32,000 nt of DNA from an uncultured Chloroflexia bacterium (GTDB lineage: Bacteria; Chloroflexota; Ktedonobacteria; Ktedonobacterales; JADMIN01), in NCBI GenBank assembly GCA_963718915.1, contig CAVRAI010000007.1:330001-362000 (forward strand), written 5' to 3'. Of the stretch, positions 6,141-23,230 are shown one piece after another (positions within the stretch are counted from its first letter, which is position 1; the number at the start of each line of letters is the position of its first letter). The notes under the pieces are model-generated. The model was given only the letters and a program-made list of their open reading frames with translations, made no database searches and was not told the DNA's origin. A program made the translations under genes and the position numbers.

Positions 6141-6311
6141 TCAACTCGTGGTGGTGCCTTTGTCCTCGGGAGCCAGAACGGTGGGGTTCCGCTTAGCGCG
6201 GGGCCATGCGAATCGCGCCATCCCGTAGGCGCTTATGGCTTCACTGTAGAGGTTCGTGCGCTCGACACACTCACCAGGGATCTCGGTGCAGTGCTCGATG
6301 AACGCTCCCAT
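6141..6311 (-). CDS. hypothetical small ORF (56 aa) upstream of arsR
   Basis: ATG 6311 is preceded by GAGGG. The product is 'MGAFIEHCTEIPGECVERTNLYSEAISAYGMARFAWPRAKRNPTVLAPEDKGTTTS'. Third-position GC is high in the first half. The second half reads through the 31-nt repeat in another frame. It falls below the 60-aa ORF-track threshold. Confidence 0.2.
   Translation of the reverse strand: MGAFIEHCTEIPGECVERTNLYSEAISAYGMARFAWPRAKRNPTVLAPEDKGTTTS
6193..6223 (-). repeat. 31-nt orphan copy of an SDR-gene 3' end (right boundary of the ars cluster)
   Basis: The sequence is 'ttagcgcggggccatgcgaatcgcgccatcc'. On the minus strand it reads '..[10 protein letters not shown]', with a TAA stop 4 codons upstream. 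All five nucleotide differences from the live SDR 3' end are synonymous or stop-for-stop. Confidence 0.7.
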
Positions 6312-11992: not shown

Positions 11993-12760
11993 CTAGCGCG
12001 GCGCCATTCTTATCGCGCCATCCAGCCGGATCGTCTCGCCGTTGAGCATCGTGTTCTCGACGATAGACTGCACCAGCGCGGCGTACTCCTCCGGGCGGCC
12101 CAGCCGGGGCGGGAACGGCACCTGCTGGCCGAGCGACTGACGCGCTGGCTCTGGCAGCCCGGCGAGCATCGGCGTGTCGAAGATACCCGGCGCGATGCTC
12201 ATCACGCGGATGCCATAGCGCGCCAGCTCGCGCGCAATCGGCAGTGTCATGCTGACGACGGCGCCCTTCGAGGCGGAGTAAGCCGCCTGACCAATCTGCC
12301 CATCGAAGGCCGCGACCGAGGCCGTGTTGACGATGACGCCGCGCTCGCCCTCGGCGTCTGGCTCGTTGCGCTGCATCGCGTCGGCTGCCAGGCGGATCGA
12401 GTTGAAGATGCCGACGACGTTGACCTGAAGCACTTTCGCAAAGCGGTTGAGGTCGTGCGTGGTATCTTTGCCCAGCACTCTCTCGGCAATGGCGATGCCC
12501 GCGCAATTCACTACAATACGCAGCCCGCTGCCTAGCGAGGTCGCCGCCTCCACCGCCGCGCGCATCGAATCGTCGCTGGTGACATCAGTCGCTACGAAAC
12601 GCGCCTTCTCGCCCAGTTCCGCTGCCAGCGCCTCGCCCGTCTGCGCGTTGAGGTCGGCAATGACCACCCGCGCGCCCGCGTCCGCCAGCCGCCGCACCGT
12701 CGCCGCGCCCAGTCCCGACGCGCCGCCCGTCACCAGCGCGCCTGTTCCCGCTATTTGCAT
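11993..12760 (-). CDS. short-chain dehydrogenase/reductase, 3-hydroxyacyl-CoA dehydrogenase-like
   Basis: Cofactor motif '[12 protein letters not shown]' (TGxxxGxG), catalytic 'YSASKGAV' (YxxxK), C-terminus '..[12 protein letters not shown]'. Confidence 0.9.
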
Positions 12761-12849
12761 GATCGGCTCTCCTTCGTCGTTGCATCACCGTGAACGTGAA
12801 AGCGGCGCCCGCGCCGCCATCCAACCATACACCGCGAGACATGGCAACA

Positions 12850-12879
12850 TCAACACGGCGTATACAGGGGCAATATAAT
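12850..12879 (+). promoter_or_regulatory. candidate promoter (TCAACA-18 nt-TATAAT) for the small membrane-protein gene
   Basis: Perfect TATAAT at 12874-12879 and a 4/6 -35 box at 12850-12855. Confidence 0.35.
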
Positions 12880-12924
12880 ATCGTTGGCGGCTCATCATGC
12901 GCTTTGCCATGGAAAGGTAAATTC

Positions 12925-13194
12925 ATGCGTTCGGGATTCTTCTCATCTTATGTGCCGTGGGTTGGCGCGTTCTTCCTCGCGATTGGCCTGCTCTCGTTCT
13001 TCACCCACGCGCCGTTGCTAGGGGGCGCGCTGCTCTGCATCGGCGTGGCGTTCCTGTTGCTGGGCAACTCGGCGCAGGCATGGCCGACGCTGCCGCTCTG
13101 GCGCAAGATCGGCTCGGCGGTTGGCATCATCGTGGGCCTGGTGTTTCTCGTCACCAGCCTGATCACAACGGCTTTTGAGGCAGCTGGCGACTGA
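12925..13194 (+). CDS. small (89 aa) three-TM membrane protein, unknown function
   Basis: ATG 12925 follows GGAAAGG. The product is 'MRSGFFSSYVPWVGAFFLAIGLLSFF..LLCIGVAFLLLGN..VGIIVGLVFLVTSLI'. The ORF-track start at 12790 is an upstream extension. Confidence 0.55.
   Translation: MRSGFFSSYVPWVGAFFLAIGLLSFFTHAPLLGGALLCIGVAFLLLGNSAQAWPTLPLWRKIGSAVGIIVGLVFLVTSLITTAFEAAGD
13058..13176 (+). repeat. 119-nt direct repeat, copy 1 (the functional 3' end of the small membrane-protein gene)
   Basis: Ungapped hand alignment to 14676-14794 gives 107/119 identical positions. Confidence 0.85.
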
Positions 13195-13343
13195 AGTCGC
13201 GCCTAGTTGGCCTGCGGCCACGAAGTCTGCCTGCGCGAACTCACAGATCCCATCCCCACCGAATACGCTGACATTGCACATTCTCTCGAACGCGCATAGG
13301 CGGGTTTTGTGGCGGAGCGGGGTGAGGCCATAAAGGCGCGGTT

Positions 13344-14674: not shown

Positions 14675-14797
14675 CTGCTGGGCAACTCGGCGCAGGCGTG
14701 GCCGACGCTGCCACCCTGGCGCAAGATCGGCTCGGCGGTTGGCATTATCGTGGGCCTGGCGTTTCTCGTCGCCAGCCTCATCACCAGCGGTTTCTGA
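14675..14797 (+). pseudogene. orphan 3' fragment (40 codons plus stop) homologous to the small membrane-protein gene
   Basis: It reads 'LLGNSAQAWPTLPPWRKIGSAVGIIVGLAFLVASLITSGF*' and is immediately preceded by an in-frame TAG (14672-14674). Of the 11 codons that differ from copy 1, 6 are synonymous. Confidence 0.7.
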
Positions 14798-14903: not shown

Positions 14904-16394
14904 ATGAAACCGCTTGTTGCTATTGTTGGACGCCCGAATGTGGGCAAATCGACCCTGTTCAATCGGCTCGTGGGCGAGCGTCTCGCGATTGTCGAGGATC
15001 TGCCTGGCACGACGCGCGACCGGCTCTATGCCGACGCAGAGTGGAATGGGCGCGTCTTCTCGCTCGTGGATACCGGCGGGCTGGAATTAGGCGCAAGCGA
15101 GGACATCACCGCGAGGGTTGCGGCGCAGGCGCAGCTGGCCATCGAAGAGGCCGATGTGATCGTCCTGCTGGTGGATACTAAGTCGGGAATTACTGAGGCC
15201 GACGCCGAGGTGGCTGAGATATTGCGGCGCTCGGGCAAGCCGGTGGTGCTGGGCGCGAACAAAGCGGATAACCTCACCCGCCGTCAGGAGGCTGTCGAGT
15301 TCTATTCGCTTGGTTTGGGCGAGCCAATCACGCTGGCCGCCAACTCCGGCACCGGCACCGGCGACCTGCTCGATGCAATTACTGAGCATCTGCCGCCCGC
15401 CGAGGAAGAGGACGAGGCGGCGAGCAATGGTATCCCGCGGCTGGCGATTGTCGGCCGGCCCAACGTCGGCAAATCGTCGCTGCTCAACGCCATCGCCGGG
15501 GCGGATCGCGTCATTGTCAGCGATATCCCCGGCACGACACGCGATGCGATTGACACCGAGGTGGAGTACAAGGGCCGCCGCGTCACGCTGATCGATACGG
15601 CGGGCATCCGGCGGCGCGGGCATATCGGCCCCGGCGTCGAGAAATACAGTGTTTTGCGCGCCGACCGCGCCATCGATCGCTGTGATGTCGCGGTGCTGAT
15701 GATCGACGCGGTGGAGGGCATCACCGCGCAGGATACACACATCGCGGGCTACATCAACGAGGCGGCCAAGGGCATCGTCATCGTCATCAACAAGTGGGAC
15801 ATCATCAAAGAGCGCCGCCGCGAAGCCGAGATATGGGCCGACCCCGATGTGCCGATTCTGCCCAGCGAGAATGTGGACCTGGCCGCGCTAGAGGTACGCG
15901 ACGCCGAGGCGTATATGGACGAAATGCGCGAGAAGCTGAAGTTTGTGCCGTACGCGCCGCTGGTCTTTGCCGCGGCCAAGACGAAGTACCACGTCAACAA
16001 CATCCTCGACCACGCGCTACGCATCAACGATACGCGCTCGATTCGCGTGCCGACGGCGCAACTGAACGAGATTGTGCGCGACGCGGTGCAGCGCCATCAT
16101 CCGCCGAGCTCGCAGGGGCGGCCACTGCGCATCTTCTACGTGACGCAGGCCGAGACGAATCCGCCCACGTTCGTCTTCTTCGTCAACGACCCGGAGTTGC
16201 TGCATTTCTCCTATCGCCGCTATCTGGAGAACCAGTTGCGCAATGTCTTCAGCTTCGAGGGCACCGCGATCCGGCTCCAGTTCCGCGCCCGTACCACCGA
16301 CCGCGGCGAGGACGACGAGAAGAAAGGCAAAGCCAAGCCGCGTCCAGGATCGAAGTATACAGGCAAACGCCCCGCGACGAGATCGCGACGGTAG
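14904..16394 (+). CDS. der: ribosome-associated GTPase Der/EngA
   Basis: Two tandem GTPase domains, 'GRPNVGKSTLFN..DTGG..NKAD' and 'GRPNVGKSSLLN..DTAG..NKWD', are followed by a KH-like C-terminal domain and a Lys/Arg-rich tail. ATG 14904 is preferred over the ORF-track start at 14877. Confidence 0.95.
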   Translation: MKPLVAIVGRPNVGKSTLFNRLVGERLAIVEDLPGTTRDRLYADAEWNGRVFSLVDTGGLELGASEDITARVAAQAQLAIEEADVIVLLVDTKSGITEADAEVAEILRRSGKPVVLGANKADNLTRRQEAVEFYSLGLGEPITLAANSGTGTGDLLDAITEHLPPAEEEDEAASNGIPRLAIVGRPNVGKSSLLNAIAGADRVIVSDIPGTTRDAIDTEVEYKGRRVTLIDTAGIRRRGHIGPGVEKYSVLRADRAIDRCDVAVLMIDAVEGITAQDTHIAGYINEAAKGIVIVINKWDIIKERRREAEIWADPDVPILPSENVDLAALEVRDAEAYMDEMREKLKFVPYAPLVFAAAKTKYHVNNILDHALRINDTRSIRVPTAQLNEIVRDAVQRHHPPSSQGRPLRIFYVTQAETNPPTFVFFVNDPELLHFSYRRYLENQLRNVFSFEGTAIRLQFRARTTDRGEDDEKKGKAKPRPGSKYTGKRPATRSRR

Positions 16395-16479: not shown

Positions 16480-16670
16480 CGCGGCATGATGTACTTTTAC
16501 CATGTACGACGGACACGGGCATTGCGGTGGGGTGAGCAAGCCGGAGCGTAAACGCTTCGGCGAATGGGATTGGGAGGCGGAAAATTCGCCGTAGCATTCA
16601 TGCTACAGTCTCCCTCGCCTACCACAACGTAGGGTGTTCCGAAGAAAAAGTAAAAGCACATCATGCCGCG
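16480..16670. repeat. hairpin-ended ~190-nt repeat element, copy A (candidate structured ncRNA or MITE-like element)
   Basis: The terminal arms 16480-16516 and 16634-16670 are inverted repeats; the outer 21 nt are complementary with one mismatch. The core shares identical 28-nt and 25-nt blocks with copy B, including the hairpin GTAGCA-TTCA-TGCTAC (16591-16606) and the stem CGGCGAAT / ATTCGCCG. Confidence 0.75.
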
Positions 16671-21151: not shown

Positions 21152-21168
21152 TATACGTAGCACGTATA
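21152..21168. promoter_or_regulatory. perfect palindrome TATACGT-AGC-ACGTATA upstream of the small TEP-repeat gene
   Basis: 7-3-7 inverted repeat, 29 nt upstream of ATG 21123. Confidence 0.3.
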
Positions 21169-21262
21169 GCCATCATATCAGGCATGGGAAGCGGGGGAGT
21201 CACCGGGCGCAAACATATGCAGACTGATTGCATTATTCCGTGAGCTGCCGAGTCTTCAGCAT

Positions 21263-21313
21263 ACAAGGGCTGGCAGCGCCCTTGTTGACATTGTTGTCTT
21301 TACAGGACATCAT
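21263..21313 (+). promoter_or_regulatory. hairpin ACAAGGGC-N7-GCCCTTGT abutting a candidate promoter (TTGACA-17 nt-CATCAT) for the GYD gene
   Basis: Stem at 21263-21270 and 21278-21285, -35 box at 21285-21290, -10-like box at 21308-21313. Confidence 0.4.
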
Positions 21314-21387
21314 TGTGAGAAGCATGGGGTCGGGCGGACAACGGAACGTGTGGTGTGCAAAGATGGATGCACAGACAGGGGCAAACC

Positions 21388-21678
21388 ATGCCAACCTACG
21401 TATCACTGATCAAGTGGACCGACCAGGGTGTGCATAACAGTAAAGATACAGTCCAGCGGGCGCAGGCCTTCCGTGGCGACCTGGAGCGTCGCGGCGGCAA
21501 GCTCCTGAGCATCTTCTGGACCCAGGGAAACTACGATATCGTCGCGACCATTGACGCCCCCGACGACCAGACGGCGATGGCCACATTGCTCGCCGTCAGT
21601 GGGCAGGGGAATGTGCGGACAGAGACCCTACGAGCGTTCAGCGAGGCCGAGATGGCGGCCATCCTTCAGAAAGTATGA
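21388..21678 (+). CDS. GYD-domain protein
   Basis: 96 aa: 'MPTYVSLIKWTDQGV..AQAFRGDLERRGGKLLSIFWTQGNYDIVATIDAPDD..A..LLAVSGQGNVRTETLRAF', the family-typical pattern. ATG 21388 is preferred over the ORF-track start at 21355. Confidence 0.8.
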   Translation: MPTYVSLIKWTDQGVHNSKDTVQRAQAFRGDLERRGGKLLSIFWTQGNYDIVATIDAPDDQTAMATLLAVSGQGNVRTETLRAFSEAEMAAILQKV

Positions 21679-21794
21679 TGTAGCAGCGCGTCGTCGGCCC
21701 AAATCCCATGCTTGCCCATGCTCGTCTCGTCCCAAGCCCGCCGCGCCACACGATGTTGCTTCACTGCACCCAGGCCTCCCGTGTGAGCAGCAGC

Positions 21795-21984
21795 GCCTTC
21801 TGATGCAGTTTTAGCATGTGCGACGGACACGGGCATTGCGGTGGGGTGCGCAGGCCGGAGCCTGAAGACCCCGGCGAATGGGCCAGAGAGGGCGGGAAAT
21901 TCGCCGTAGCATTCATGCTACGGCCCGCCTCGCCCACCACGACGTGCGGTGTTCGGCGTACATAGTAAAACCACATTATAAGGC
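21795..21984. repeat. hairpin-ended ~190-nt repeat element, copy B
   Basis: The arms 21795-21830 and 21949-21984 are 36 nt, ungapped, with 27 Watson-Crick-compatible plus 3 G:T-compatible positions. The core contains the extended hairpin GCCGTAGCA-TTCA-TGCTACGGC (21903-21924). Confidence 0.75.
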
Positions 21985-22234
21985 CATGTATAGGGCATCC
22001 TCCCGCCCGTGAACATACCTGGCAGCGCCATCGCGGGTTTTCTGAGTGTCGTCACCAGCCGTCCGCAACTTACCAGGCTGATGCGCCGCGATTTCTCTGG
22101 TACATGGGATATCTTAATCGCTATCGCATGCGCTACTGGCTTGCCAGACGTCTAATACATCAGAAAGAGCAATACGCGTACATTGCAATGCTGTCAGTGG
22201 CGGCGCCACAAGTCCGCGAGGAGCGTTTCACACG

Positions 22235-22741
22235 ATGCTGACTTCAGTGGTTCTCTTGGGCGTTCTGGCGACGCCGAGCTGGTCTCTTAGCCCGTTCACG
22301 GTGAGTAATGATGATCTGCATGCCATCGTTGGGTTGATCGCGGGCGTGGCAATCCTGTCGCTGTGGGTTGCGCTCGAACATTTCCGGCAGACGCGGCGGA
22401 GGAATCAGTCTGACACTATCCAGGTGTCTGAAGCGTCTGAGGTGAGAGAGCCTGATGCGCTGCTGGCAGCTATGCCTCCCGGCGCGGGTATTGCCGTGCC
22501 GGCACGTGCGGAGTGGCTGCTCGACGATAATACGCTGGTGCGGATGCACGCGGTACCTCGTGGCTCGCTGACTCCGCTGGCAACATCGCAGCCAGAGTCG
22601 CGGGCCATCGATACCGGCGAGCCACAGCCTGCCGCCGACGCGACAGGAACAGATCCGACCACAGCGCCGATGGGCGACAACAATGACACGGACGACACGG
22701 ACGACACGCAAGACGACACGCAAGACGACTACCCACTGTAA
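22235..22741 (+). CDS. hypothetical membrane protein with an acidic repeat tail
   Basis: The N-terminus is hydrophobic, and a TM helix 'AIVGLIAGVAILSLWVAL' follows. The C-terminus is 'DNNDTDDTDDTQDDTQDDYPL'. GAGGAG lies upstream. Confidence 0.55.
   Translation: MLTSVVLLGVLATPSWSLSPFTVSNDDLHAIVGLIAGVAILSLWVALEHFRQTRRRNQSDTIQVSEASEVREPDALLAAMPPGAGIAVPARAEWLLDDNTLVRMHAVPRGSLTPLATSQPESRAIDTGEPQPAADATGTDPTTAPMGDNNDTDDTDDTQDDTQDDYPL
22685..22729. repeat. in-frame micro-tandem repeats (GACACGGAC x2, GACACGCAAGAC x2)
   Basis: Units at 22685-22693, 22694-22702, 22703-22714 and 22715-22726. Confidence 0.85.
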
Positions 22742-22759
22742 CAGGGTTATTCGTTATGG

Positions 22760-23230
22760 TTAAGTGAGGATCCACACGCGGTCGGAGCCGCACAGGCGCG
22801 GTGGCCCCCATCGTGCCATTGAACGGGGTGGCATGAAGCGCGAGGTTGGGATAGGAGATGTGCGGAGCCAACAAACACCCCGAGCACCTGGAATCGTCAC
22901 ATTAGCCAGATAGGCCCGCACATTCTCAGCAGTAAAGGGCCTGTTGTACGATATGTCGGGCACAGGTACGCGTTTATGAGAGGACGCTTGCCACAGAGGA
23001 TGTGATTGCGCGGCGAACGTCGTATATGCTGCATCAAGGACCGAGACTGGCGCGATAGTCTGGAAGGGAAAGGCGCTCGCGAATGGATGGTAAGCGCGCA
23101 CAGCAGAGATCACGGCAACTGACACCGAGTCGGCCCAACGAAAATCGTCTGGCCGAGGATCGGGCAGGTCGTGGTACGCGCTCGTCATCCTCGGACGCCA
23201 GAGACAGGGACGGTCGCCGTCGTGGCACAT
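22760..23230 (-). CDS. hypothetical ORF, possibly a decayed gene
   Basis: This is the only ORF of at least 60 aa in the 690-nt gap. The first ~100 aa look protein-like ('..FTAENVRAYLANVTIPG'). The last ~45 aa are Arg/Pro/Trp-rich and look like out-of-frame sequence. Confidence 0.25.
   Translation of the reverse strand: MCHDGDRPCLWRPRMTSAYHDLPDPRPDDFRWADSVSVAVISAVRAYHPFASAFPFQTIAPVSVLDAAYTTFAAQSHPLWQASSHKRVPVPDISYNRPFTAENVRAYLANVTIPGARGVCWLRTSPIPTSRFMPPRSMARWGPPRLCGSDRVWILT

Follow-up and report, generated by a model that had tools for sequence, protein, structure and literature searches.

A small foldback repeat of uncultured Ktedonobacterales that probably occupies the loops of intergenic hairpins

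Elements that insert into palindromes and the repeat described here

The foldback MITEs of bacteria, such as ERIC/IRU, Correia, RUP and YPAL, are non-coding intergenic elements of about 100–200 bp with terminal inverted repeats, which form a long RNA hairpin when they are co-transcribed with the upstream gene and which are present in some strains and absent from others. The classical MITEs are flanked by target-site duplications (TSDs), often of TA, and insertion into a hairpin loop is not one of their defining traits. Among the insertion sequences (IS), IS1397 and ISKpn1 insert into the loop of palindromic units, with duplications of 3–4 bp in the case of IS1397, and the PATEs derive from IS200/IS605. 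Insertion sequences that target REP sequences or palindromic units include ISPpu9, ISPpu10, ISPa11, ISPsy8 and ISRm19/22 (PMC1525189), and REP hairpins are documented as insertion targets (PMC1525189, PMC12288879). In Pseudomonas putida, ssr9 of ISPpu9 (IS110 family) is a structured small RNA that occurs as an orphan module at several REP sites, depends for movement in trans on a transposase from another locus and is called a selfish element by the authors of that work (PMC12288879). At an IS110-type junction the same core dinucleotide stands at both ends, one from the target and one from the element (PMC12288879). Moreover, REPINs are mobilised by RAYT (Y1/HUH) transposases (PMC3116915, PMC2817692), and a general description of the bacterial foldback MITEs is available (PMC3184786).

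The window (the whole stretch of 32,000 nucleotides that was analysed) contains two copies of a hairpin-ended element, copy A (16480–16670) and copy B (21795–21984), and no others. Each copy spans about 190 nt with its flanking stems, the family element itself having about 175 bases and the termini TGATGYASTTTTA...TAAAASCACATYA. Terminal inverted repeats (TIRs) of 14 nt or longer are present, and the ends pair mutually over more than 30 nt. In its size, its non-coding nature, its TIRs, its dispersed copies and its presence/absence polymorphism the element is like the foldback MITEs. Unlike the classical MITEs, it shows no direct target-site duplication when copy A is compared with its empty site in a relative, which argues against a MITE of the usual DDE type. 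Like the REP-targeting IS, the element in its copy A lies at a defined position in a short intergenic palindrome, the halves of which become complementary flanks, and unoccupied palindromes are present elsewhere. However, the REP-targeting IS are autonomous, 1–2 kb long and transposase-encoding, whereas this element has 173 nt and is non-coding; the target hairpins here are not known to form a high-copy REP family; and neither the 3–4-bp duplication of IS1397 nor the repeated core dinucleotide of IS110 is found at the copy A site. With ssr9 it shares the state of a short non-coding module that stands alone at several sites, in the case of copy A inside a palindrome, but ssr9 is bounded by A'/B' boxes with an AG dinucleotide at both ends and has no long TIRs, while the present element has TIRs of at least 14 nt and no repeated core. 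Like the REPINs and PATEs, it is hairpin-forming non-coding mobile DNA without target duplication. A hairpin loop, being single-stranded when extruded, would lend itself to insertion in the IS200/IS605 style, 3' of a short motif, and TGA is found in all three left junctions available (A, B and C), although this TGA may be the element's own. REPINs, however, consist of two inverted REPs of about 20 nt and occur in tens to hundreds of copies; the present element folds back too, but has 173 nt, and it was met twice in 32 kb and as one real match in a metagenome scan. The ends of IS200/IS605 are subterminal hairpins, whereas the ends of this element pair with each other, so that the long inverted repeats argue against ends of the IS200/IS605 type. 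The sole local hairpin at the left end has 3–4 bp (consensus pairs 25–28/38–41). As the element appears to depart from each family tested in at least one defining feature, it was not filed under any of them, and the known families cover only partly the combination of a foldback structure, an apparent choice of hairpin loops and the absence of a TSD. To our knowledge, there is no partner IS with the same ends as the element.

Copies A and B and the empty site of copy A

The features of the two copies and of the genes upstream of them are as follows (window coordinates):

14904–16394, plus strand: der (EngA GTPase), upstream of copy A; Der is 94% identical to Der of Ktedonobacterales MAGs
16480–16489, plus strand: left hairpin half of copy A, CGCGGCA and the loop bases TGA, identical in the core-less contig L068
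16490–16662, plus strand: core insert of copy A, TGTACTTTTAC...AAAAGCACATC, the removal of which yields the L068 sequence, CTTCGCGGCATGA joined to ATGCCGCGGCT
16663–16670, plus strand: right hairpin half of copy A, the loop base A and TGCCGCG; the following GCT matches L068 too
21388–21678, plus strand: GYD-domain gene (Pfam PF08734, E 6.6e-29), upstream of copy B
21795–21800, plus strand: left flank of copy B, GCCTTC, putative 5' target stem, in which GCCTT pairs with AAGGC at 21980–21984
21801–21803, plus strand: TGA at the left junction of copy B, putative 5' part of a TGAA target loop, or terminus of the element
21804–21977, plus strand: core insert of copy B, TGCAGTTTTAG...AAAACCACATT, its boundary taken, by analogy, from the empty site of copy A
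21978–21984, plus strand: right junction of copy B, A followed by TAAGGC, putatively the last base of the TGAA loop and then the 3' target stem

In our own gene calls, the stem of copy A begins 85 nt past the der stop codon and that of copy B 116 nt past the stop codon of the GYD gene, which agrees with the 86–117 nt given for both copies in an earlier note made from the letters alone. The arms of copy B (21795–21830 and 21949–21984, 36 nt each), when aligned without gaps against the reverse complement, show 27 Watson-Crick, 3 G:T, 3 A:C and 3 other positions out of 36; thus the computed alignment returns the 27 Watson-Crick and 3 G:T positions that had been counted by hand, and the 3 G:T against 3 A:C positions bear out the remark that the wobble-type positions are split between the strands. 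In copy A, the end TGATGTACTTTTAC and the reverse complement of TGATGTGCTTTTAC, the right end, agree at 13 of 14 positions. The cores have 173 nt (A) and 174 nt (B) and are 80% identical, and the similarity is confined to TGATG...CAT(C/T)A with sharp edges on both sides, the 7 nt outside the shared sequence being unrelated between the copies. As the earlier note had claimed, these outermost bases differ between A and B and yet are complementary within each: the flanks of copy A, CGCGGCA and TGCCGCG, are paired at 7 of 7 positions, and those of copy B, GCCTTCT and ATAAGGC, at 6 of 7, five of them contiguous (GCCTT/AAGGC). At arbitrary positions of the window 177 nt apart, 7/7 pairing has a background frequency of 1.3e-4 and pairing at 6 or more of 7 one of about 2e-3, and therefore the complementarity of the flanks in both copies is not due to chance.

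The decisive comparison for copy A comes from L068, an ENA contig from the source sample ERZ27264292, with a der gene 90.8% identical in nucleotides to that of the window. At the site of copy A, L068 has a bare hairpin, CGCGGCA-TGAA-TGCCGCG, with a 7-bp stem, a TGAA loop and a folding energy of -9.5 kcal/mol as DNA, and no core. Its empty-site sequence is ...CTTCGCGGCATGAATGCCGCGGCT, as against ...CTTCGCGGCATGA(173 nt)ATGCCGCGGCTAAT at the filled site of the window; read on from der, L068 gives ...AATCCAACTTCGCGGCATGAATGCCGCGGCT and then the contig end, and the window gives ...AATCGAGCTTCGCGGCATGA(173 nt)ATGCCGCGGCTAATCC. The window without 16490–16662 equals L068 exactly over 24 nt, and the 173 nt sit between the TGA and the A of the loop with no base duplicated and no base deleted. 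When GGCATGA and ATGCC of the empty site are set against the filled site, all 7 + 5 = 12 nt are accounted for, and the flanks are inverted, not direct, repeats. The GCT after the stem in L068 matches the true right flank of the window and not a fold-back of the left flank, so the contig end is unlikely to be an assembly or palindrome artefact. This exact empty site is a single one, for copy A, in a genome about 9% diverged, with the junction resolved to within a few bases; it is accordingly for copy A only that the element was found inserted at a fixed point of an intergenic palindrome. In L069, a third relative, neither hairpin nor element is present at the der site. Because L068 has the hairpin without the core, the closing arms of copy A are the stems of a core-independent hairpin, just the short hairpin at the empty site for which the earlier note had advised looking in relatives. 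The core bounds proposed there, (A)TGATG...CAT(C/T)AT, come near; the empty site shifts them to TG(T/C)A...CACAT(C/T), with TGA and A lying in the target loop. These junction bases, TGA and A, could be bases of the target loop or an excision footprint.

Copy B, by analogy with copy A, may also have been inserted into a pre-existing hairpin, to be written GCCTTC-TGA-(174 nt)-A-TAAGGC. The predicted empty hairpin, GCCTTCTGAATAAGGC, would have 5 bp and -3.1 kcal/mol as DNA, no better than shuffles. No exact empty site of copy B was found among the five GYD orthologue loci, none of which is collinear with the window to the right of the gene. Since no collinear relative showed an empty site, the conclusion for copy B is drawn from copy A and from the flank statistics. 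At a similar distance from the GYD gene there is an unrelated hairpin of 13 bp in L045 and a classic terminator in L041, which is suggestive only.

Several known modes of insertion were compared with the copy A site. The empty site is inconsistent with the duplication of CATG, AT, TG or A, be it as a core or as a TSD, and no dinucleotide register of an IS110-type insertion reconciles the empty GGCATGAATGCC with the filled GGCATGATG...CATCATGCC.

Family members, relatives and putative target hairpins

The family found comprises four homologous copies (A–D) and one degenerate relic, which lie at unrelated loci in several Ktedonobacterales genomes. Two of the copies, A and B, are complete, as copy C has lost its right flank, and copy D its left flank, to a contig end. 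Copy C, on the contig L035, lies 20 nt past the stop codon of an SLT-domain gene and is truncated by the contig end, and copy D consists of the last 50 nt of L070, that is, the right arm only, with about 70% similarity to copy A. The core of copy B is homologous to copies A, C and D, while its flanks are not homologous to those of A or C. The relic (L047/L048, 2218–2312; nhmmer E 2e-5) is located downstream of a CDC48-like gene, antisense to both neighbours; one of its terminal arms is missing and its fold is not significant. The centre of this relic is CGCGGCATGAATGCCGCG, the same hairpin as at the empty site of copy A, which hints at nested insertions or at a shared origin of target and element. 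Two of the contigs, L035 and L070, break off within the element, and L068 does so 11 nt beyond the target hairpin; we attribute these contig breaks at the element to the effect that repeats have on assemblies.

Further searches gave little more, and the family is rare in the collections covered. The scan of the genome contigs with ACACGGGCATTGCGGTGGGG, a set that evidently lacks the source species, returned nothing but two chance matches in coding sequence (L001 and L002), and the metagenome scan with GGGCATTGCGGTGGGGTG returned 36 loci, 35 of them chance matches and L035 the only real one. There were no matches to the element in the scans of viral contigs or in the blastn 'distant' searches of plasmids and phages, and literature searches turned up no Ktedonobacter MITE.

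Relatives without the element were found at all three of the loci checked (der, GYD and SLT). L003 and L004 are two assemblies of one syntenic relative, with a der gene 91.6% identical in nucleotides and other shared segments 83–88% identical, and both copies A and B are absent from it. In this relative the copy A segment is replaced by a TIR-TPR gene. The gene in question, with TIR and TPR domains, occupies the intergenic region between der and the methyltransferase gene (11721–12713 of L003, also in L004), the region that holds copy A in the window; genes of this type are frequent in defence systems. At the site of copy B, positions 21154–22848 of the window (1.7 kb with the GYD gene, copy B and the ORF 22235–22741) correspond to 286 nt in L003 (17174–17460), and L003 has probably lost the GYD block, since other relatives (L043–L045) keep the PNPOx-GYD synteny. 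Moreover, the GYD orthologues in L041–L046 (five loci, 84–90% amino acid identity) have no element downstream, and the SLT orthologues in L047–L051 (five loci; 95% and 88% amino acid identity) have none at the position of copy C. The der phylogeny is star-like, and thus gain cannot be polarised against loss. In addition, a 15-nt string, CATCATGCCGCGAAG, occurs at about 11611–11625 of L003 and also in L004; it is the exact reverse complement of the left junction of the window, CTTCGCGGCATGATG (z about 5 against shuffles), and to judge from its letters an end of the element may once have lain at the der locus of this relative, which otherwise lacks it.

The junctions of the different copies are alike: the left junctions of A, B and C have the form stem-TGA/core, and the right junctions of A, B and D the form core/A-stem. 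A hairpin of the same kind is present in the window in an unoccupied state:

13187–13200 (within 13183–13203), plus strand: unoccupied hairpin GCGAC-TGAA-GTCGC, candidate target of the same kind

The hairpin and the bases upstream of it have GCTGGCGACTGA (12 nt) in common with copy C in L035, the left flank of which reads GCTGGCGAC-TGA and is identical over those 12 nt. The hairpin may belong to a small family of TGAA-loop target hairpins; its TGA is also the stop codon of the ORF 12790–13194. The hairpin of the copy A empty site, with the same TGAA loop and flanks, TTCGCGGCATGAATGCCGCGGCTAAT, recurs at the unrelated L047 locus, the central hairpin of the element has the same top, GCATGAATGC, on the minus strand, and L003 has GCGGC-TGAA-GCCGC directly after der. 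Among 159 tetraloop hairpins in about 120 kb of Ktedonobacterales DNA, three have TGAA loops, where 0.6 are expected per loop sequence, so that TGAA loops are only modestly enriched in general, too little for a firm conclusion.

Another mobile element was met in the contig of copy D. At about 2745–3985 of L070 there is an IS630-family element with an HTH_23/HTH_32 N-terminus, a frameshifted DDE part and a TA duplication. Its inverted repeats are CTACTCAGTCCAGACTG/TTACTCGGTCCAGATTG, and it lies just downstream of der, adjoining copy D, at the TA centre of a perfect palindrome, GCCGCGCC-TA-GGCGCGGC. This shows that palindromes in the clade are taken by at least one other mobile element. A derivation of the repeat from this IS630 element was rejected, as the inverted repeats CTACTCAGTCCAGACTG differ from its ends.

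Probable insertion into hairpin loops, alternative explanations and other repeats in the window

What is observed, then, is a repeat family with presence/absence polymorphism, one empty site in the form of a hairpin, no TSD and no coding capacity. We consider it probable that the element is a MITE-like foldback mobile repeat which resides in hairpin loops, and that its closing arms are a split target hairpin and not a conserved RNA helix. It would be a quasi-palindromic (foldback), non-coding mobile DNA of about 173–174 bp in a genus-level clade of uncultured soil Ktedonobacterales (Chloroflexota), which would integrate without target-site duplication at the apical loop, TGA^A, of short hairpins already present in intergenic DNA 3' of genes. 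The bases outside TGATG...CATYA would then be the two stems of the target hairpin and not part of the element; split target stems would explain why the flanks pair within each copy and yet have nothing in common from copy to copy, and the composite would be one long hairpin on the old stem because the insert folds back on itself. Such an insertion would probably be near-neutral for the former function of the hairpin. We infer that loops are the specific target of the element and that its movement depends on an enzyme from another locus, which may act on DNA in single-stranded or hairpin form. An autonomous partner was not found, and the element fits no known chemistry of transposition. The element is overlapped by no ORF that has a Pfam match, the roughly 30 main ORFs of the 32-kb window include no transposase, integrase or reverse transcriptase, and neither a Y1 transposase nor an IS110-type (DEDD) transposase was seen in the sequences examined.

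The earlier note had left the choice between a helix kept by covariation and a mobile core inserted into pre-existing, terminator-like hairpins. The second of these is directly supported for copy A by the empty site in L068, and fits the element-less relatives, and it extends to copy B by analogy only. The first is contradicted for copy A, because the helix of copy A exists without the core, and it is not needed to explain the outer 5–7 bp. Thus insertion rather than covariation is most likely the cause of arms that differ and are still complementary. The word 'terminator-like' finds no support in these hairpins, as there is no T-run behind either closing stem (the tails are GCTAATCC in A and CATGTATA in B) and the terminator scan, like the promoter search, gave no match in either copy. 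An intrinsic terminator was rejected on the same ground, a G+C-rich stem followed by a T-run being found at neither copy.

If the preferred reading is right, split target hairpins can mimic covariation, in that flanks which differ and yet are complementary resemble the result of selection on an RNA helix, and the mining of structured RNAs from repeat families would need empty sites to exclude false covariation. It would also add, for the Ktedonobacterales of the poorly studied phylum Chloroflexota, a small foldback element with an apparent preference for hairpin loops; should a partner be found, the element might lead to an enzyme specific for hairpins or single strands.

It is unlikely that the copies are paralogues of a structured non-coding RNA with a closing helix, P1, that reaches 5–7 bp past the conserved sequence and is held by compensatory substitutions. 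The folds are indeed very stable: against shuffles, copy B has z scores of -6.4 for the plus-strand RNA, -5.5 for the minus-strand RNA and -5.7 for the single-stranded DNA, and the plus strand of copy A has z = -6.6. On the plus strand the fold has two helices, one of them the long closing helix, and three local hairpins, and its centre is branched and not palindromic. RNAalifold gives five compensatory pairs among copies A, B and C, for example 78:91 (GU/GC/UA) and 82:87 (GC/CG), and by eye a further such pair can be read in the closing arms, C-G in A against G-C in B; however, three sequences are too few to establish covariation. A 27-nt block, GACGGACACGGGCATTGCGGTGGGGTG, is invariant in the three copies, while its partner arm in the second helix varies in a G:U-compatible manner, and positions 2–4 of the outer stem differ on both sides between A and B and are still paired. 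Furthermore, the plus strand of copies A, B and C is co-oriented with the gene just upstream, but copy D (at der) and the L047 relic (at the CDC48-like gene) are not co-oriented with the adjacent upstream gene. Against this reading, the minus strand folds about equally well with similar G:U counts: the consensus cells hold 18 G:U and 3 A:C on the plus strand and 16 G:U and 1 A:C on the minus strand, and the two folds are different and equally good. On the minus strand there is one long hairpin, which for copy A is more stable than the plus-strand fold, and this single long hairpin is favoured because the internal hairpins are near-copies of one another and able to cross-pair. Folding by itself does not decide between the explanations. 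Rfam 15 at gathering thresholds gave no match in the whole window, and in E-value mode both copies gave chance miRNA-hairpin matches only (E > 0.1), so that beyond these there are zero Rfam matches at any threshold. Finally, L068 has the outer helix of copy A without the core, and the same hairpin is also in L047, from which it follows that the outer helix is not part of the conserved unit; in addition, the orthologous loci in close relatives are without the element.

Particular RNA and DNA classes were tried as well. For a hammerhead ribozyme or a box C/D RNA, suggested by a CUGAUG motif, the remaining cores misfit and Rfam has no match, and there is likewise no Rfam match for 6S, Y or SRP RNA. 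An integron attC site was rejected as the ends are TGATG...CATCA and not RYYYAAC...GTTRRRY, and the neighbours are syntenic housekeeping genes in the relatives.

A role as RNA is compatible with mobility, and the element could be a mobile RNA gene. We give a low probability to the view that it is either a mobile structured-RNA gene in the manner of ssr9 or the product of a new chemistry which inserts a foldback at TGA^A loops of single-stranded DNA without duplication. The invariant 27-nt block GACGGACACGGGCATTGCGGTGGGGTG would then be the recognition or guide part.

Quite unlikely is the reverse course of events, in which element and closing stem form one unit and L068 has lost the 173-nt core through an internal deletion or an excision, such as slippage of replication across a long palindrome, its short hairpin being a remnant. 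Long palindromes are prone to deletion and the der phylogeny gives no polarity; the 15-nt CATCATGCCGCGAAG in L003 hints at a former element end at the der locus, and TGA and A are possibly terminal bases left after excision. However, slippage at the direct repeats CATG or ATG predicts GGCATGCC or GGCATGATGCC, and what is observed is GGCATGAATGCC; the same TGAA-loop hairpin with its flanks occurs at the unrelated L047 locus; and the closing stems of A and B are unrelated, which is hard to explain if they were transposed with the unit. Even after an excision the stems would remain at the site and would thus act as target DNA, as the reading of insertion into hairpin loops has it. That a decaying repeat should have complementary flanks in two copies by accident is very improbable, for although there are two complete copies only and the flank stem of copy B has 5 contiguous bp, the joint chance is about 3e-7 (1.3e-4 × about 2e-3), and for copy A, with flanks that form a real stand-alone hairpin in L068, coincidence is effectively refuted.

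Other repeats were also noticed in the window. A direct repeat of 118 nt (13058–13175 and 14676–14793), with copies that are 91% identical and separated by 1618 nt, lies on either side of two ORFs without a Pfam match. The duplicated stretch is the 3' part of an ORF which has no Pfam match either and which encodes a hydrophobic C-terminus, and the synteny with L003 breaks at about 14800, beside the second copy. A 31-nt repeat, TTAGCGCGGGGCCATGCGAATCGCGCYATCC, is found at 2224–2254, 6193–6223 and 11993–12023. The third of these is weaker and lies in the coding 3' end of an SDR gene. The first two are 97% identical and lie just upstream of the minus-strand genes that flank an arsenic-resistance-like cluster (ArsR, LMW phosphatase, MIP channel and methyltransferase), and judging from sequence and position the 31-nt repeat may be an ArsR operator.
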